Positions 2,908 through 58,050 of a stretch of DNA of 64,000 nt are shown here, piece by piece. Both the position numbers and the translations under genes were made by a program. Every line of letters starts with the position of its first letter. Position 1 is the first letter of the stretch. The notes under the pieces are model-generated. The model made no database searches, was not told the DNA's origin, and saw only the letters and a list, made by a program, of their open reading frames with translations. The DNA comes from Felis catus. Lineage: Eukaryota. The stretch spans positions 58,344,001 to 58,408,000 of the forward strand of contig NC_058382.1 in NCBI RefSeq assembly GCF_018350175.1, written 5' to 3'.

Positions 2908-3033
2908 CTAGAAGTCTTGCGACTGGACGCTCTCCGAAGGTTGCAGGTTTGTACGGAGTTTGTACATGTGATTGAGCGCTTGTGTGAGGAAAGCCCCGCT
3001 GGTGTTGATTTCCATCAAGGTCAGGTTATCCAG
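2908..3033 (-). CDS. GINS2: GINS2 coding exon 5 (126 nt including TAG)
   Basis: Acceptor ttttag|[53 protein letters not shown] at 2910-2908. Confidence 0.96.
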
Positions 3034-3147
3034 CTAAAACGCAAGAGAGAACCGACTGGGTTGGTTGAGGAGTGTTTGATTTGAGAAAATGTAAAATCTA
3101 CTGAGAGGGGGCGTCCCTCCGCCCCGCCCCGCCCCCACCGCGCCCAC

Positions 3148-3274
3148 CTTGGCATGGGCCTCCTGCTGCCGCACGAAGCTATCCGCAGACACCCGCAGTT
3201 TGGCGATGCGAGTATCCCACACGTCCTTGATCAGGGTCCGGATCTCATCCGCTTTCGGGATGTTGTCTGAAGCA
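3148..3274 (-). CDS. GINS2: GINS2 coding exon 4 (127 nt)
   Basis: Acceptor ccctcag|T, donor AAG|gtgggc; [42 protein letters not shown]. Confidence 0.96.
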
Positions 3275-4399
3275 CTGAGGGAAGCAAATGTGAACAAAAT
3301 CACGTAAGGAAGCATTTGGTAGACTACAGACGGCAACATCTGGGGAGAAGTGGCCTTTACTTTTTCAGCAGGCTCCACACCCGAATGGGGAGCTCAAACT
3401 CCCCGCCCGCCCCACCCACTGAGCCAGCCAGGTGCCCTTCCAGGTAGAAGTGGCTGTTTAAAAACTGCTGCTTGGGCTCAGGGAAACACGAGCCGTTATA
3501 AATACAAAATGCGTTTCCCTTTGTTTTCAGTTTGAAGAGGTAGACGTTTCTGGCGGGTAAGCGGGGTGCCAAGAAAATTGAGCCACGATCCATCCGCACA
3601 AAGTTACTTGTGCTCATGTCAGCTGCCCCGCGGCAGGCCGCAGCGCGGGACCTTCGGAGAGTAAGCTGGAAGTCGGACATCCTCTGTCTCAGGGTAACGG
3701 AGCGTTCTGTGCCGTAGAATTTCCACCTTGAATGAAGTTGCTTCACGGGCTGGCTCAAAGGTCATGACTTCCGTGCTCACGCCTCCTCGTTTATCCAAGG
3801 GCTTACAACCCACCAGGGGAAGACGACAGCCCTGTGCCAGGCACTGGGCTCGCACCACAAAGCAGTTCTGGCCTCCCCAAAGCTCTGAAGGCTAGGGACG
3901 GTCCCAGTCCACAGAGAACACAAGTACGCTTACAGAAACCGAAGAAGAAACTGCGCATTAGCATAAACCCGGCAAACCTATATCCGGTGAATTCTGGGTA
4001 ACAGTTTGGAGCCAGCAAGGGTCAGCGTGACAGCCGTCCCGTTGGGAGCTAGATTTTCAACTAACCTTTGAAGGAGAAGACAAAAGAGAAGACGAAAGCA
4101 GAGGCCAACACCATCCGCCACCAGGCATGCTGGGAAAGCTGAAAGTAGCTTGTGATTAGCAGTGGAGAATCCGTGGTATAGAATCTACACGGTGGATTGG
4201 ATTGAAGACCCAAACATTTGGATCTGACGCCCTGAATAGCAGGTTAAGGAACAAAAGACTCCAGCTACTTTGTTAACTGAACTGCAGAACAAAGCTAAAA
4301 TTAGGGCCCCTGGCCGAATGAGTTACAAAGAATTCTCAAACAAGAGTTTCGATAGGAACCGCATACATAAGACACTGAACTTCAGAAACTAAACGTGTT

Positions 4400-4578
4400 G
4401 GGGCGCTGGGGTGGCTCAGTCGGTTGAGCATCCGACTCTTGATTTTGGCTCAGGGTCACGATCTCGTGCTGTGTGCGATCGAGCACGGCGCCTGCTTGGA
4501 ATCCTCTCTCCCCCTCTCTCTGGCCCTCCCCTGCCCGTGCTTGCTCAAAAAATAAAAAATAAAAAAACAAAAACTAAA
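4400..4578 (+). mobile_element. CAN-SINE
   Basis: GGGGCGCTGGGGTGGCTCAGTCGGTTGAGC head, CT-rich region, A tail. Confidence 0.9.
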
Positions 4579-4929
4579 GATGAGCAGGCCCCTCACCTCG
4601 GCGTCCGTATTTTCCTTTCCAAATCACCTTCTCTGCTGCCCCACGAGGCTCTCAGATCCGTCGGACACCCTCCCGGGGCCTCTGCAGCCCCAGAATAACC
4701 GCCCGGGCTCCCCTACCCTGCACACCTGCCCCAACAACTCTGCTTCCCCAAACATAACAGGTCCCTGCCTCCTACCTACAGCGTCCTCTCCTCTCGTCAA
4801 CTGTCCCTCGTTTTTCAAGCCAAGGATCCCTTCTCTGGCACCAGCAGGCGGCTGCATCCCGACATAACGGGAACGGCACTCCTCAGGCTGCCGGTCAACA
4901 GGCTCACACCGCTCGCCCACTGACTGGGC

Positions 4930-5220
4930 TTGTGAGCAGGGGACAGGCAGAGAGGAGAGCGAAACAAAGAATGCCACACCCCAACGTGGGGCTCGAACTC
5001 ACCAACTGTGAGTTTATGACCTGAGCCAAAATCAAGACGTGGACGCTTAGCTGACTGAGCCACCCAGGCGCCCCATGCTTTTGTTATTTATTTAATTTTT
5101 TGTTTTCAGAGAGCAAGCACGCAAGGGGGGGGGGGGAGGGACGGTGGAGGAGGGGGAGAGAGAGAGAAACTAAGGCCCCATGCTCAGCACAGGGCCCAAC
5201 TGAGCCACCCAGGTTCCCCC
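4930..5220 (-). mobile_element. Two CAN-SINE copies or fragments
   Basis: Heads CTGAGCCACCCAGG at ~5055-5074 and ~5200-5220. Confidence 0.8.
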
Positions 5221-5761
5221 CATTTTGCAGATCACATTCGAGTATCTCCCAAGTAAAACTCATCCACGCTTGCCTGCTCCCCTCTACTGACGTCATTCGT
5301 TCATTCAACAAACGTGTGCACCAGGCACCGTACTAGTGCAAATTAGTCCCTACCCATTCCCACTAGCACTGGGGTGGGGGTGGCAGGGCACGGCCACACG
5401 AGTGCCTACGAGACCACAGCTGACAAACGCCACGAGGCTACAGAGCTGCCGAGAGGACAGGCACACAGAACCTGTGAGAGAGCCCCGGTCGGGCTAAACC
5501 AAAGGAGGGAGCAGAGAACAGAGGGACCTACTGGACACAGGGAACACAGTACGGAAGCCCCGAGGACCCTGGAACGTGTGCAGAAGTGAGAGGCCGACGT
5601 GGGAATCAGAGGGAAGAAGGTGTAAGAGCCGTGAGAGAAGGCAGGAGGAGCCCAGGCTAGGCGGCGCTTTGCAAGCCGTAATCAGGACATCAGCCCAAAC
5701 CCCGGACAGGCTCCAAGGAACAGGGGAGTCCCAAGCCGCTCCGTCTTTAAAAGACTACTCT

Positions 5762-5955
5762 GGGGCGCCTGGGGGGGCTCAGTCGGCGAAGCGTCCGACT
5801 CTTGATGTCGGCTCAGGTCACGATCTCCTAGCTGTGAGATCAAGCCCCAGGTCAGGTTCCTTGCCCGGCGTGGAGCCTCCTTAAGATTCCGTCCCTGCCT
5901 CTGCCCCTCTTCCCAGCTCACTCACTCGCTTGCTCAGGGGGGAAAAAAAAAAAAG
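5762..5955 (+). mobile_element. CAN-SINE
   Basis: GGGGCGCCTGGGGGGGCTCAGTCGG head, A tail. Confidence 0.9.
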
Positions 5956-6463
5956 TTTTCCTCTTGAACAACAAAAAAGCAGCAGCCAACGGGGAGCCAG
6001 AACTGGACACAGGGCAACAAGAAGCGACTGCACTAGCGGGCTTTCATTACAGCTAGGGTTCCGAGCGAGCGCGAGCCCTCTGGCCTTTCCTGCGGAGGCC
6101 GTGCGAGAACTCCCGCGCACAAAGACCGAGGGGTAGAGCTTCACTCATAGAGCCCAGCTACGGTTAAGAACAAAGGCTGGAGAGGACAATGGAGGCTCAC
6201 ACCTGGGTCCAATGCCAAGTGACAGAGAGCCGAGGGACGGCCTAGGAGAGGGAGGGGTGGGAAGAGGAAAGGGAAAAGGAGGGAGCCCAGGCAAGGGTGC
6301 GTGCACACACACGCCTCCCGGATTACCGATCTGAGGAACCGGGTGGCCAGGGACGCCGCTGACCGCAGAGGTGAACGTGCGACAGGATAGGAGGGACAGG
6401 CCAGGGGAGGAGAATCACGAGTTGTATCCCACAGGTGGGCTCTAAGAAGGGAAATATACTTAC

Positions 6464-6563
6464 TGATTTAACAGGAGTTTGGTAAGTTCCATGTAGTAAG
6501 GGCTAGGCATAGGGGTAAATGTTTCTTCCTTTCGCTCGTGATCCCTAATCTTCTCCAACTTTT
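6464..6563 (-). CDS. GINS2: GINS2 coding exon 3 (100 nt)
   Basis: Acceptor atttcag|AA, donor TCA|gtaagt; (E)[32 protein letters not shown](H). Not in the ORF track. Confidence 0.96.
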
Positions 6564-7082
6564 CTGAAATTTAGAAGAGTATACGTTTTACCATCACCAC
6601 ACCCAGCGTATTTTTTAAGCCTTCCAAATGAACCAAATGTCTCTATTACCTATTCGATTAACTAACAAAAACATGAAGAAGAGGAAAACACTTTTTGGAA
6701 TAACACACCAGTCACCAGATGGTTCAGGGTCTATTTCCCCCAATATTTCTCTTATGGAAGGTCGTACATTTCCTTCACCGTTGCTGCTTTGGCCCGCAGG
6801 GTCTATTGCTGAAGAAAGGACGTCAGAGTTCTTAGGGAAAGAGCACAGCGTCCTGCCTTTGATGCACAAAGGGACCGGATGCTGGAGAAACTTACTTAGG
6901 CGTCTTCCAGAAGAGAGCAAGACGGCTCTACACCGCGGCCACTGCGGCCGGGGCGGGGGGCGGGGTGAGGACACTGGAGGGCTGGATGCTCGCAGCCGGA
7001 GTCACCCGGTGGAGCCCAGTCCCATCTCCCTGTCTCACTGGTCTGAGAAAGTCCTGAACCTGAACCGGCCACTGTTGCTAAA

Positions 7083-10720: not shown

Positions 10721-11130
10721 CTACCAAAAGAAAATCGAGCCCCCCAGTAAGACAAAACAGGGCAACGAGCGACACCGGACCCCACTGCTGTCCAACAAGA
10801 GAAAGGGCGCCGCACAAGCCGAAACCCAAAGAAATCTAAAAGCCCAGCTGCGAACACAGACCCAGGGAGGCCGCTCCAAGCGAGGGAGCAGAACTGTGCT
10901 CACCTGCGCACACCTGGCCAGCCCACCGGGGCCGGTTTCGGGGAGGACGGGGAACAGCTGAGGGGCCGGGCCCAGCCCGCGGACTTGGTCTCTCCGGGCC
11001 CAGACTCACAACGTCGCCCCATCTGTTCGTCCCCTCGTCTCCTCGGCGTCCCTCGCCCTCCGTTCCCCCCTCTCGTATTCCGACCCCCGCCCCGCCTTAC
11101 TCCCCCCGGCCACTCAGGGTTCCCCCATGA

Positions 11131-11806
11131 CCACTCGGAGTCCCCCCACCCTGTACTCCCCCCCTCCCAGCGACCACTCGGCGTCCCCCCACCCTGTACT
11201 CGCCGCTCCCAGCGACCACTCGGCGTCCCCCCACTCCGTACTCCCCCCCCGCCACTCGGCGTCCCCCCACCCTGTACTCCACCCTCCCAGCGACCACTCG
11301 GCGTCCCCCCACTCCGTACTCCCCCCACGACCACTCGGCGTCCCCCCACCCTGTACTCCCCGCTCCCAGCGACCACTCGGCGTCCCCCCCACCCCGTACT
11401 CCCCCCCCCGCCACTCGGCGTCCCCCCACCCTGTACTCCCCCCTCCCAGCGACCACTCGGCGTCCCCCCACTCCGTACTCCCCCCTCCCAGCGACCACTC
11501 GGCGTCCCCCCACTCCGTACTCCCCCCACGACCACTCGGCGTCCCCCCACCCTGTACTCCCCGCTCCCAGCGACCACTCGGCGTCCCCCCACTCCGTACT
11601 CCCCCCCCCGCCACTCGGCGTCCCCCCACCCTGTACTCCCCCCTCCCAGCGACCACTCGGCGTCCCCCCACTCCGTACTCCCCCCTCCCAGCGACCACTC
11701 GGCGTCCCCCCCACCCCGTACTCCCCCCGCCCCCGCCACTCGGCGTCCCCTATCCCGTACTCCCCCGGCCACTCGGGGTCCGCACCCGTACTCCCCCCCG
11801 CCCCCG
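11131..11806. repeat. GC-rich minisatellite (VNTR), about 17 units of 33-43 bp, in GINS2 intron 1
   Basis: Core CCACTCGGCGTCCCCCC recurs at 11131, 11174, 11216, 11252, 11294, 11331, 11373, 11411, 11453, 11495, 11532, 11574, 11611, 11653, 11695, 11736, 11769 (first and last degenerate). Confidence 0.95.
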
Positions 11807-26106: not shown

Positions 26107-26165
26107 TCAGGCTTCGGGGTCTATGTCTCCGTCCTCTGGGCACGGCCCTGCCTCGTCCAGCCAGA
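26107..26165 (-). CDS. C16orf74: C16orf74 last coding exon (59 nt including TGA)
   Basis: Strong acceptor ttctctttctcctag|TC; (V)WLDEAGPCPEDGDIDPEA*. Confidence 0.92.
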
Positions 26166-28328: not shown

Positions 28329-28688
<360 letters not shown>

Positions 28689-30439
28689 TCAGCAAGGAGG
28701 GGAGTGCTGGCCTCGCTCCGCGCAGGGGGACGCTGAGGCGCAGGGCAGTTCAACGGCCCCTCCAGGCTTGCGTCGTCCAGGGAGGGCACTGAGTTTCGCC
28801 TGCTTCGTTCACTAACGTGGCTCGGGTGCCCGGAGCAACGTCTGATACCCAGAGGCCCCCGGAACACGGCTCTCAAGTGGGGCACGGAGCGCAGCATGAA
28901 CCAGAACTGGCCCGTCTGCCGCGCGGAAGGAACCCCTCACGCGGCCACTCCTCCCCCACATCCCCTTCTGGAAGGGCATCTGGGAGATGCCCGAGTTCTC
29001 CCTCACGCACCTGACTGGATTCCCCAGGGGAACCGTCCGGGTCTGGAATCTTCTCTGTGCAAAGATTTTCTGATTAGGAATTTGGGGTCTTTAATAGACA
29101 CGGGGCTGGTCAGGTTTTCTGTTTCTTCCTGTGTCAGTTCAGGTGAGCTGGGCTTTCCCGGGAGGAATCTGTCCATTTCTGCTACTGTTGGTGGATTCCT
29201 TGCTCCGTGGCTGCTACTAAGTACCCACGTCACCCACGCCACACCCTTGCTCCGTCCTTCCCTTCTGAGTTAGGGGACCCTGACTCTCTCCTCTCCCTCA
29301 ACGTCCCAGCCAACCTAACCCATCACAAGCCCGCAGATGCCATCATCCCTCGGTGGCTTTGCCGCCCTTCTCCCTCCCTCCTCAAGCCCCTAACTAGCCT
29401 CTCTGCCAGAAACCGCGAACCTGATCATACCGCATACCTGCGAAACCCTCGCGGCCTCTTGACAACTAGCTACAAGCAGTTCTCAAAGCGTGTTCCCTGG
29501 AACACTGGCCTCCCGGGGTTCCACGACCAAATGGGTTTGAGAATAGCACATATTTGAATGTTGACTGGACCCCACCTAATCTATCTTTCTCTTGGGGATT
29601 CTCGTGCATGTCAGAGAATGAAAGGCTCTGAGAAGTCCTGCAGTAGGGAAGCAGCTCTTTAATTGCGTTTCACCCTGGGCTTCCTGAATTTAAGTAATCT
29701 TGGGGTCTGTTTTTGGAGGAATGCCTGTTGCTATCTCACAGAACCATGAATCGTGAAATACATGTTGGGAGATATTGATCACGAATTGCAGCCAACCCCC
29801 CCAGCCCAGCTTTCAGCCTTCAAGATCTGGCGCAAACGACCCGCAGCCTCATTCCCCGCCACCGGTCCACACTCCCGATACTGCTCACAGCTCCCCAAAA
29901 CCCTGGGCTCGCGACCCAATTCCTGCCTGGAATGTTCTTTCTTTCTTTACCAGGGGAATGGGCTCCTACTCACCCTTCAGAGCCCAGCACACTGGGCTCT
30001 TCTTTCGGGAAGATGTCCCAGCAAATGCGGTCCCTCCCTCCTTTGTCCGTCTACACGGATTCACTCCTCAACCTTCTTCCGGCACTGATCAGACTGTATT
30101 GAGACATTAGTTCTTAATTCTGTCTCCCTTTACCGTGAGCGTCTGGAGGGCAGCCAGTGACTCCCTCCTCTGTGATTCCCTTGGGCCCGGCATAGCACCT
30201 GGGAGAGAGCAAGCAGACTGCTTCACATTGTGAATGCGAAAGGACCTCAGGCACCACCGAACTGGGTGTGAAAATCCTGGTCTCCGGGCCCCTCCCCTTT
30301 GGTTTCACCCCAAACAGCCTCCAACTGGGATGACATTTGCTCAGGCATCTCGGGCCCGGGCCACAGCAGCAGCTGAGGAAACGGGGTCCTCGACGGCCCC
30401 TGTGGGGCCAGGGCGTGGCTCTGAGGCATGTCCCCAAGA

Positions 30440-45960: not shown

Positions 45961-45988
45961 CTTTCAGGCAGGACAGCTTAAGCCCCAT
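45961..45988 (-). CDS. C16orf74: C16orf74 first coding segment (28 nt; whole exon 45961-46006, 46 nt)
   Basis: Acceptor ttctctctccgcag at 46008-46007, perfect Kozak gccgccATGG, MGLKLSCLK(G), donor AAG|gtaagg. Confidence 0.93.
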
Positions 45989-47799
45989 GGCGGCGCGTCC
46001 GCAGGCCTGCGGAGAGAGAAGGGGCTTGCTGGGTGCTGGCCATGTGCGGCCAAGCCCCCCCCCCCCCCCCCCCGCAGCCCCACGGGTGCACAACAGGAAA
46101 TAGTGGGGAGAGAAACCGCCAGTGACTGGCGAGGTCAGGGTGCGTGCTGGCTGCATCTGGGCTGAGTTTGCTCAAAGATGAGCCTGTGCTGGCGGAAAAA
46201 GCTTTCAGGTGCCTCGGAGCTAAATATACTGGAGGTCCTGGAGCGTGGGGTGCAGCTGAGGTGAGGGTGTGGTCGGGCCGCCCTTCGGAACCGAAGCCAC
46301 CTGGCCTTTCCGTTAAGGGGCTGCTGACTTCAGAAGCAGCAGGGCAGGGGGGCACCCTTGGCCAGCCTGCAGGTGGCCCTGAGCCCGCCGTGATGGGCTC
46401 ACCTTCTGTTATGGTGCAGCCGCTCTTTATAAATGCGCGTGCTTTGGAGATCTAACAGATTGAGGCACCCGGGCCTTGGTCCGTGGGAGTTAAAACTGTC
46501 CCAAGTGTTCTCACGATCTGCCGGCCGATTGATGGATAAAACAGGGAGCAGCTGACGGGGTATGCGCCTGACATTCCACGGCAACAACCCCGGGAGATGT
46601 TACTACTTCCCCATTGACAGATATGGAAATCAAGGCTCAGAGAGCTGGTGTCCCCTGCCCGAGGCCAGCCAGCTTCCTAGGAGAGGGGAGCTGGGGTTCC
46701 GACCCCGGGGCTGCCCCTCCAGGGGCCTGTGAGGCTTGCAGGCCCTTCCAGGGAAGGCGAGGCTCTTGTTTTCACCTCTGAGGGTCCTTGTGTCTGAGGG
46801 TCGATGGGGGCGGGGTGCTTATCCCTCCTTTCACAGGGAGCTGCCTGTGTGCCAGGCTGGGGAGGGGAGAGGGATGGAGGGGGCTGGCAGGGGGGCCCAT
46901 CATCTCCTCGTCCTGCACAGAGGCTGGCACCGATGCCTAGGAAATGCTGGGGTCCCCCAGGCGTCCATGACGTGGGTGCTGTGCTGGTTCCCCCCCCACC
47001 CCCGGAACTTATCAGTCATGCAGCATCTCGGGCACACCCAAATGAATCGGTATTTTAACAAGGCCCCCTGGGAGTCGTGTGTCTGTTAAGGTCAGAGATG
47101 CTGGCTCTGGGCCAGAAATTGTGGGGGTCTCAGCGTGGAAGATGGGGGGCAGTGAGGGTGTGGAGAAGTGGCTGGAAGTCTGGGAGACACGCAGGTCAGG
47201 AGATGGGGGGGTGGGGGTGGGGACTTGGAGGGACCCAAGGGGAGGGCTCTGATTTCATCCAGGCTGGGTATGTGGGACAGGCAGGAAGGAGGTGGCCTGG
47301 AGACATCTGCTGGGGGATGGGCTGGGGACACGAGTGGGAGGGAGGGAGACAGGGCAGGGGAGGGACAGACACCCGTGGAGCATCTCTGACTTGGCCAGCT
47401 GACCACAGCCAGCTGACCACAGGCAGGTTCCTCAACCAACCTGGACTTCACTTTCCTCATCTTTAAAATGGGGAGGATGCTCTTGGAGGTGTCACTGAGC
47501 AGCATGGAAAACTGAGTTATCAGGGGGGCACAAGGCTTAAGAAGTGTCAGCTGCTGTGGTTTATGACAGTCCCAGAGAGAAAACGGGTCTTGGTTTCCAG
47601 CAGGGGGTCTTTCTCCAGGGCTGTGCTGTCCTGAGTGTGGTCCTGGCCCAGAGGCCTGGGACAAGCGATCGCCGGGAGCTCATGAGAAATGCCAGCTCTC
47701 GGGACCCATCCTGCCTGCAGTCTTGGGGGCTGTATCCAAGCAAGACGCAGGGGAGGCTCAGCACAGCTGCCGAGGCACGGGGCCCAGCAAGATCGCCTG

Positions 47800-48499: not shown

Positions 48500-49780
48500 A
48501 TTATTTTTAAAAAAAACTATTTATTTTGAGAGAGAGAGAGCAGGAGCAGGGGAGGGGCAGAGAGAGAGCAGGAGGAGGGGAGGGGCAGAGAGAGAGGGAG
48601 AGCAGGAGCAGGGGAGGGGCAGAGAGAGGGAGAGCAGGAGGAGGGGAGGGGCAGAGAGAGGGAGAGCAGGAGCAGGGGAGGGGCAGAGAGAGGGAGAGCA
48701 GGAGCAGGGGAGGGGCAGAGAGAGGGAGAGCAGGAGCAGGGGAGGGGCAGAGAGAGCAGGAGCAGGGGAGGGGCAGAGAGAGAGAGAGCAGGAGCAGGGG
48801 AGGGGCAGAGAGAGGGAGAGCAGGGGAGGGGCAGAGAGAGGGAGAGCAGGAGCAGGGGAGGGGCAGAGAGAGCAGGAGCAGGGGAGGGGCAGAGAGAGGG
48901 AGAGCAGGAACAGGGGAGGGGCAGAGAGAGGGAGAGCAGGGGAGGGGCAGAGAGGGAGAGCAGGAGCAGGGGAGGGGCAGAGAGAGCAGGAGCAGGGGAG
49001 GGGCAGAGAGAGGGAGAGCAGGAGGAGGGGAGGGGCAGAGAGAGCAGGAGCAGGGGAGGGGCAGAGAGAGGGAGAGCAGGAGCAGGGGAGGGGCAGAGAG
49101 AGGGAGAGCAGGAGCAGGGGAGGGGCAGAGAGAGAGAGCAGGAGCAGGGGAGGGGCAGAGAGAGGGAGAGCAGGGGAGGGGCAGAGAGAGAGAGAGAGAG
49201 CAGGAGCAGGGGAGGGGCAGAGAGAGAGCGAGCAGGAGCAGGGGAGGGGCAGAGAGAGAGGGAGAGCAGGAGCAGGGGAGGGGCAGAGAGAGAGCAGGAG
49301 CAGGGGAGGGGCAGAGAGAGAGAGAGCAGGAGCAGGGGAGGGGCAGAGAGAGGGAGAGCAGGAGCAGGGGAGGGGCAGAGAGAGAGAGCAGGAGCAGGGG
49401 AGGGGCAGAGAGAGGGAGAGCAGGAGCAGGGGAGGGGCAGAGAGAGGGAGAGCAGGAGGAGGGGAGGGGCAGAGAGAGCAGGAGCAGGGGAGGGGCAGAG
49501 AGAGAGCAGGAGGAGGGGAGGGGCAGAGAGGGAGAGCAGGAGCAGGGGAGGGGCAGAGAGAGAGGGACAGCAGGAGGAGGGGAGGGGCAGAGAGAGAGAG
49601 AGGGAGAGCAGGAGGAGGGGAGGGGCAGAGAGAGGGAGAGCAGGGGCAGGGGAGGGGCAGAGAGAGAGAGAGCAGGAGCAGGGGAGGGGCAGAGAGAGAG
49701 GGAGAGCAGGAGCACGGGAGGGGCAGATAGAGAGTGCAGGAGCAGGGGGAGGGGCAGAGAGAGAGCAGGAGCAGGGGAGG

Positions 49781-49832
<52 letters not shown>

Positions 49833-50885: not shown

Positions 50886-51135
50886 AGGGAAGGAGGGAAG
50901 GAAGTGGGGAAGGGAGAGGGAGGGAAGGATGGAGGAAAGGGGGAAGAAAGGAAGAAGGGAGGGAGGGAGGAAAGGAAGGGGGAGGGGGAGGAGAGGAAGA
51001 GGAGTGGGATGGAGGGAGGGGATAAGGGGGGAACAGAAGGGGAAGGGGGAGGGGAAAGGGGAGGTGAGGGGAAGAGGAGGGGAGGGAGGGGGAAAGGGGA
51101 GGGAAGTGGGGAGGGGGGAGGGGCGGAGGTGGATG
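50886..51135. repeat. Polypurine GA-rich low-complexity tract
   Basis: About 250 bp almost entirely G/A on plus. Confidence 0.9.
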
Positions 51136-56599: not shown

Positions 56600-58050
56600 G
56601 CCGGCACAGGCTGACCCTGCTGTGGGTTCCACCCAGGCCCCGGAGCCCGGAGCCTCGGGACAGTCCGACCGCCCTTGACCCCGCCCCCCACGCGGCCGAG
56701 CGAGCGGAGCTGCGGGTCTCCCTTAATGAGAGCCTCCCCGGGTTCCGCTGAGCTCTGCCTGCCCGGAGAAGGCGCGCGTGCGTTCACACTGGTCGCCCTT
56801 TGCGGTTGCAAACCTGCTTTGATGCCCTGGGAGCCGAGGGGGCCCCTAAGTGAGGCGGCTCATAAATAATATAGTTTGAAATACTCGATCGAGGGGAAAT
56901 GGTTCCTCTCGAGGCCTCCTGCCCCCACCCCCGGCTGGGCTCCTTTCCAGCTCTGAGGAATGGCGGTCTGGCCCATTCCCGAGGAACTCGTGACAGCGCG
57001 GGGTGTCGGCTGGAGAGTGGGGGGCCAGAGGCGGCCACGCGCGGACACACCCCCCACCCGCCCCGTGTAAGTTGCAACACGGCCAGAGGGGCCCAACTCT
57101 GCCCCAGCCCGAGTCTCCGCAGAAAAGTCTGCGAGAAGTTAGGGGGACGTCCGGGCCGCGAGGGTTCCCCGCCCCCCTCCCCCCACCGCCCCTGGGGACC
57201 CTCTGGCCTCCCCGGGCGCGCCCTTCCCGCCGCGGGAGCCGGCGGGGCGTGGACGCCGCTCGGGGGACTGCGGCTCTCGGGGACCGCGGCGTCCACTGGA
57301 AGGGGTGGGCGGGCGGCGCGGGGCACTCACCGCTTCCTGGGGGGCTCACTGCGGAGCCGCGCCCGGGGCGCACGGGGCCCACCCGGGCGCTGGTGGCGGC
57401 GGCGGCCGGGCTCCGGGGGCCGCGGCGACGAGCCTGCAAGAGAGAGCAGCGGGGGTCATGGCCCGGGCCGGGTAGCGCACTGGGGTCCCCGCTCCGCCCC
57501 GGCGGGCGCTCCTGGCCGCCGCCGCCGCCGCGAGCACGCCTCCCGCCCCCCCTCCCCTCCCCGGCCCCTCGGGGCGGTGCCGCCCGCAGCCCCGCCCCGC
57601 CCGCGGGCGCCGGATCGCACGGCCTGGGCGCGGGGGCGGAGCAGGCCCGCCCGCCGCCTCCCGCCGACCGTGCCAGGGGCGCGCCCGGCGCCCGCGCCTC
57701 CGGCCTCCCGCCTCAGTTTCCTCTCGCCCTGCCCGGAGGAGGAGGAGGAGGGTGGGGCCCAAGGAAAGTGTGGGCCCCTCCCCGGGGCTGGGTGCCAAGC
57801 TCCCTGAAGCCGTGTACCCCTGCCCGGGGTGGGGGGGGGGGAGGGGGGCGGCGGTGCGTGGAGAGGGGCTCCGGGGCCACCCCCTACCGTGTGGTCATAC
57901 TTGAGTCGGCCCCGTCGCCCGGCTGCAGGGAGGGGAGGCTCCAACATCCCGCCATCCCCAGTCCCCTACCCCAGCGCGGGGCCCTGGGGACAAGTTAGCA
58001 ACGTGCCCCCACGTCTTAGGGGAGCTACGGGGCCTCGGATGGCCCTCGTG
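56600..58050 (-). promoter_or_regulatory. C16orf74: CpG island / promoter of C16orf74
   Basis: Very high GC and CpG density, multiple GC boxes, repeat-free, surrounds the exon 1 donor. Confidence 0.85.
57331..57560 (-). other. C16orf74: C16orf74 non-coding first exon (5' end approximate)
   Basis: Strong donor GCG|gtgagt at 57331/57330 inside the CpG island; transcription start not determinable from sequence. Confidence 0.7.

Follow-up and report, generated by a model that had tools for sequence, protein, structure and literature searches.

We consider it somewhat probable that an ordinary, sequence-independent AUG upstream open reading frame (uORF) in exon 1 of feline C16orf74 lowers production of the 76-aa myristoylated protein C16orf74 (calcimembrin/MICT1) from those transcripts that start upstream of position 57459. 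Positions throughout are those of the window, the whole stretch of 64,000 nucleotides of Felis catus DNA that was analysed (NC_058382.1, positions 58,344,001 to 58,408,000), and the uORF and the exons of the gene lie on its minus strand. As uORFs go, the element is unremarkable, and its human copy already has an entry in a catalogue of translated ORFs (PMC10032668).

The uORF occupies 57346..57459, with its ATG at 57459-57457 and its TGA at 57348-57346; the ATG has a G at -3 and an A at +4, and the 37 codons that precede the stop include a run of five prolines. The start, stop and translated peptide given in the preliminary description were all reproduced exactly, and the spacing it had claimed between the uORF and the main start codon was likewise confirmed, the 33 nt being made up of 15 nt of exon 1 (57331..57345, with the GT donor next at 57330) and the 18-nt leader of exon 2 (45961..46006). 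The main ATG in exon 2 (45988-45986) stands in an optimal Kozak context and is followed by Gly2, described in the available text of PMC12612047 as the myristoylation site of the human and mouse proteins. Exon 3 (28430..28573) encodes the LxVPxIxIT motif, to which the same text assigns a role in calcineurin binding (PMC12612047), and the coding part of exon 4 (26107..26165) runs to the main stop codon. Translation of exons 2-4 gives 76 aa that match the felid C16orf74 record P0221 at every residue. Because the 33-nt spacer amounts to 11 stop-free codons, the uORF and the main CDS share one frame in cat and are separated by a single TGA, which lies 61 and 205 nt upstream of exon junctions 2 and 3. 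Within the spliced cat leader an AUG and an in-frame stop precede the main AUG, which is the geometry of a regulatory uORF.

The locus holds several further features. Intron 1 of C16orf74 contains a 1.3-kb purine-rich tandem repeat with periods of 32 and 58 (48528-49829) and a G/A-rich low-complexity tract (50886-51123), while a 42-nt C-rich minisatellite of about 16 copies (11129-11766) lies in the GC-rich stretch between C16orf74 and GINS2. GINS2-like exons were placed on the minus strand at 2911-6567 by matches of P0052, a camel record in which C16orf74 is fused to GINS2; a musk deer record (P0062) shows the same fusion, and a plateau pika record (P0035) fuses EMC8 to C16orf74, and such fusions point to transcriptional read-through or to faulty models. 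In cat, the model P0004 ('isoform X1') carries 56 residues from the intron-2 stretch 29009-29176 in place of exon 2; these residues presumably resemble LINE-1 ORF2, and the model may represent an exonised repeat without Gly2. Many ortholog models start at an intron-2 Met just before exon 3 (28574-28640) or at the exon-3 Met (61-64 aa forms), and such starts are another route to a form without Gly2. Human variant V3, as described in the accessible part of PMC5584151, resembles these models.

Exon 1 lies inside a CpG island (57201..57800) with a GC content of 0.81-0.85 and a CpG observed/expected ratio of 0.79-0.91. Consensus matching in the island returned six GGGCGG boxes, with starts at 57652-57499, and neither a TATA nor a CCAAT box between 57201 and 57800. 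A match to BBCABW, an initiator-like motif, is found at 57484-57479, 22 nt before the uAUG, again as a consensus match only. On whether the uORF lies on the cat mRNA, the analysis covers these promoter motifs, and the human ortholog is entered in its catalogue as a uORF. A search of sequencing runs gave no match recorded as RNA among those listed; 20 of its 24 rows contained at least half of the 26 sampled words, and the 14 of these guessed to be RNA, with shares of 0.73-0.81, are not counted here as evidence of transcription. Folding of the leader gave a structure no more stable than those of shuffled sequences (z +0.1 and +1.1).

The leader is 83-85% GC, and we compared it with 5000 dinucleotide shuffles for each leader length. 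An ATG was present in 50-79% of the shuffled leaders, a closed first uORF in 9-20%, and a first uORF of at least 30 codons in 2-10%; the probability of meeting no stop in 36 codons is 0.82 in this leader. Taken from sequence alone, the uORF is within chance expectation for a GC-rich leader. What raises it above chance is that its human ortholog appears in a Ribo-seq catalogue and that its start codon is kept in other mammals. In all six frames of the leader Pro, Ala, Gly and Arg together make up 65-75% of residues, and neither a Pro/Ala-rich composition, which any frame of this DNA gives, nor the length of the ORF is taken as evidence for a peptide.

Identifiers of the 'riboseqorf' type, we presume, denote ORFs seen in more than one study. 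The human ortholog carries such an identifier, c16riboseqorf131, and is listed in supplementary file 2 of PMC10032668 as a C16orf74 uORF of 39 aa at chr16:85750945-85751064. The cat and human ORFs lie in the same gene and exon, with homologous start and stop codons and alignable peptides; in a by-eye comparison 32 of the 37 cat residues were identical, including all of the first 15, and the human ORF differs in adding two prolines. The catalogue entry labels it 'primatomorpha - young' and records 0 MS studies and a PhyloCSF score in primates of -54.48, and it assigns the ORF no function (PMC10032668). Given that cat carries an intact copy, this dating is doubtful: the comparison suggests that c16riboseqorf131 is older than dated and predates the primate-carnivore split, so that one catalogue entry would appear to be dated too young. 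The same catalogue lists two downstream ORFs of human C16orf74, c16norep127 and c16norep128, at chr16:85707538-85707907 (PMC10032668). Three human C16orf74 transcripts are described in the accessible part of PMC5584151, which mentions no uORF there. Among the papers listed by our literature searches there was none on a C16orf74 uORF, on a switch between uORF and extension or on an overlapping acceptor, and c16riboseqorf131 was absent from the main texts searched, supplements and some reviews lying outside their scope.

The state of the uORF in other mammals was read from annotated long C16orf74 proteins that cross exon 1, that is, from proteins and not DNA, a sample biased toward species in which some frame is open toward the CDS. 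With a match defined as at least 8 of the 15 residues of the first 15 codons, 293 proteins were compared with this block: 15 matched its uORF-frame reading, 11 its -1 reading and 0 its +1 reading. The 15 uORF-frame matches reduce to 11 named species once a frame-patched donkey model, a duplicate macaque and two further records are left out, and Met stands at the uATG site in these 11 placental species besides cat and human. In-frame extensions begin at the codon in Rhinopithecus (52 aa), Macaca (51 aa), three sciurids (42 aa), four muroids (35-36 aa) and Dama (41 aa, from a record marked as of low quality); the Pipistrellus frame from the uATG overruns the main ATG, out of frame. Nine of the 11 records in the -1 frame have His-Asp after Gly, as ATG (or ACG) with G at -3 would allow, and the uATG is lost in the other two, Pteropus medius and vaquita. 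From the unbroken -1 frame between the ATG site and the TGA site in dingo, Myotis, Rhinolophus, Phyllostomus, horse and pika, we infer that the uORF is probably closed in these species as it is in cat.

Two donkey records were set aside, P0053 because it matches the first-15 block but mixes frames, and P0100, which has similar first letters and no alignment further on, as uncounted. When residues 1-52 of the Rhinopithecus extension served as a protein query, only 2 of 22 candidates were recovered, both already in the set. We also gave up the in-frame 33-nt spacer as a conserved trait, the main CDS continuing the -1 frame in dingo, Myotis and pika. With the frame shifted or the stop lost in four lineages or more, the picture at the protein level is of a start codon that is kept across placental mammals and of a frame, length and stop that are variable. 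Of the cross-mammal alignment of ATG, frame and stop that the preliminary description had proposed as a check, the ATG is widely kept, but the frame and the stop differ between lineages.

The preliminary description had also allowed that, if transcription starts upstream of 57459, the gene might be effectively bicistronic, with a second Pro/Ala-rich micropeptide. The 32/37 identity between cat and human, the invariance of the first 15 residues in several primates and squirrels, and the -1 frame left unbroken from ATG to TGA site in dingo, the three bats, horse and pika, in keeping with a retained uORF, are what such a functional microprotein would lead one to expect. Identity over the first 15 codons, however, is 0.87 on-frame vs 0.84 off-frame (11 proteins each, the on-frame set averaging farther from cat). 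When the off-frame protein substitutions were mapped to single bases and then read in the uORF frame, the 5' block gave 6 synonymous vs 8 non-synonymous changes (3 unassigned) and the 3' block 2 vs 5 (1 unassigned); leaving the two ATG-lost species out of the 5' block gave 4 vs 5. Pooled, the 8 synonymous vs 13 non-synonymous changes are a small sample inferred from proteins, in which there is no synonymous excess over the fractions of 0.40 and 0.46 expected without selection (p 0.52 and 0.91). This small protein-inferred sample, like the PhyloCSF score of -54.48 in the human entry, gives no sign of purifying selection on the uORF amino acids. Frame and stop are not conserved in the manner of a conserved peptide either, given the extensions in Old World monkeys, sciurids, muroids and Dama and the overlap in Pipistrellus. 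The cat peptide is absent from our protein collection, and 0 MS studies are recorded for the human ortholog in the one 2023 table (PMC10032668). The constraint, as far as these comparisons reach, acts on the DNA or RNA and not on the peptide. With a composition common to any frame, a labile frame and stop, and neither a synonymous excess nor a coding signal or MS record in the human entry, the bicistronic claim is without support, and we regard a functional second microprotein as very unlikely.

A different product, probably of the homologous start codon, is known from mouse. The available text of PMC12170882 describes a 111-aa isoform of mouse MICT1 that gains 35 aa through an alternate start site, lacks N-terminal myristoylation and is cytosolic; in mouse brown fat the 76-aa form is dominant and the 111-aa form a minor band. 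Stable membrane association of C16orf74 requires Gly2 myristoylation (PMC12612047, available text). Since the 35-aa extensions of Acomys (111 aa) and of two gerbil models begin at an AUG homologous to the cat uATG, the mouse 111-aa form probably starts at the homologous codon as well. The mouse 111-aa sequence was not found in protein-record searches for C16orf74 orthologs, and in the rat record P0293 the upstream sequence is different.

Read-through of the TGA in cat would add 49 residues, for an isoform of 125 aa that, like the 111-aa MICT1 of mouse, would be unmyristoylated. The stop-free spacer of 33 nt and the 49-residue extension would permit this, and in other lineages real extensions do begin at this AUG. 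The cat uORF stop is followed by G, however, and not by the CUAG that is the context of leaky stops; moreover, the spacing differs in dingo, Myotis and pika, whose main CDS continues the -1 frame, and one in three spacers would be in frame by chance. We find such a read-through switch scarcely credible.

The uATG also overlaps a second kind of signal. A 3' splice-site-like element (57434..57458, minus strand) comprises a TnAy branch motif, a pyrimidine tract and CAG, and an exon using it would begin at 57433. Its single TnAy branch-type motif has its A at 57456, at -23, and overlaps the uATG. Judged by pyrimidine and T count, the acceptor ending at 57434 ranks first of the 33 AG sites in 57960-57332; 14 of its 17 tract positions are pyrimidines, vs 14, 13 and 16 in the gene's own acceptors, and the preceding 38 nt hold no AG. 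By these simple counts, as distinct from a trained splice model, a candidate branch point, a pyrimidine tract and an AG precede exonic sequence. The models of four orthologs, in three frames, switch to exon-1 sequence exactly at the acceptor base, identities rising from 0, 0, 1 and 4 of 12 before the switch to 6, 7, 8 and 7 of 10 after it (yellow-bellied marmot, goat, rabbit and reindeer, respectively); these four models, which skip the uATG, are by-eye selections from gene predictions as opposed to reads. Entry at 57433 would give the transcript an ATG-free leader of 121 nt. No upstream cat exon was found by tblastn with 19 ortholog proteins against the window and 30 kb upstream of it (36 kb beyond exon 1), a weak negative because such upstream exons are non-coding. 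Exon 1 fits a hybrid first/internal exon.

Splicing is the main confound, because a 3' splice site could preserve the block without any role in translation. On this account exon 1 is hybrid, splice signals and promoter elements fix its bases, the uORF is translated on few transcripts with little effect, and the ATG owes its survival to three neighbouring positions that make up the branch motif. We rate this as possible. It would explain why the score of the acceptor at 57433 is on a par with those of the gene's real acceptors, why the only TnAy sits on the uATG, why ortholog models in all three frames switch at that base, and why the frame is labile and off-frame identity, at 0.84, is close to the 0.87 on-frame. 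On the other hand, gene predictions may choose the site for its acceptor-like look, quite apart from the by-eye choice of the four models, and the weak tblastn negative within 36 kb offers no cat exon from which to splice. The A of the ATG persists, as does the G at -3, although the branch point does not demand them, the branch-point consensus preferring a pyrimidine where they stand. In addition, the human ORF is catalogued as translated and the mouse product has been detected, each as reported in the sources available.

In the reading that we prefer, that of a uORF that represses irrespective of its peptide, scanning ribosomes would initiate at the uAUG part of the time, the codon having a purine at -3 and no G at +4, and after 37 codons, with 33 nt left, would seldom re-initiate at the main AUG; re-initiation is poor after a uORF of such length with short spacing. 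The mRNA may in addition face NMD, exposure being possible because junctions 2 and 3 follow the stop by 61 and 205 nt and the NMD rule is one of 50-55 nt. The main protein would then come from leaky scanning or from transcripts without the uAUG, produced by a later start site or by splicing into 57433. Where indels put the AUG in frame, as in Old World monkeys, squirrels and muroids, the extended form would bury Gly2 and in this way also divert output from the membrane-anchored protein.

The translational gating proposed in the preliminary description is plausible insofar as the human ortholog is catalogued as translated and the start codon is widely kept, while repression itself is a prediction. 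That description did not mention the frame shared with the main CDS, the mouse 111-aa isoform or the acceptor within the uORF. Counting against gating, chance alone supplies a uATG to at least about half of the shuffled leaders, and His-Asp also fits ACG. Conservation of the block is weaker as support because the block is also a candidate 3' splice site, and many transcripts may lack the uAUG, given that the 76-aa form is dominant in mouse brown fat and the long form is reported to come from an alternate start.

A broader proposal is that the start codon has been kept across placental mammals as a diverter that limits a myristoylated, membrane-bound calcineurin adaptor. The uORF would be repressive in human, cat and probably dog, horse and several bats; rodents and Old World monkeys would make a cytosolic form with LxVPxIxIT that could compete for calcineurin; and, because the codon overlaps the branch motif of the internal acceptor, start-site or splice choice would toggle it, so that one 25-nt element would couple 5'-end choice, translation and membrane targeting. 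Taken jointly, these claims are unlikely to hold, and it is the switch between lineages and the overlap with the splice signal that deserve testing. C16orf74 output matters in brown-fat thermogenesis and in several cancers, and its action needs Gly2 myristoylation (PMC12612047 and PMC12170882, available text). If the uAUG gates C16orf74, the mRNA level would misreport the protein level, and mouse would be a poor model for the human leader, since the same codon gives an isoform in mouse and a closed uORF in human.

Compared with known systems, the cat leader shares with that of mouse 111-aa MICT1, as reported, an upstream in-frame AUG on an alternate-start transcript, probably the same codon; it differs in that the muroid stop is gone, which yields an extended cytosolic isoform, whereas in cat the TGA closes the frame. 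The general class to which the cat uORF would belong is that of the sequence-independent repressive AUG uORFs of mammalian leaders, which it resembles in its adequate AUG context, in a stop near the main AUG and in a start kept more than the peptide. Unlike that class, the cat start codon overlaps a candidate branch point, and its repression is putative. Hybrid first/internal exons, finally, are a known class (10.1101/2021.05.27.446076 and PMC11797052, available text), and cat exon 1 is like them in being a CpG-island first exon with a 3' splice-site-like element that is internal in some ortholog models; it is unlike them in that the choice between the two uses, of which internal use in cat is a candidate, would also include or exclude the uAUG.
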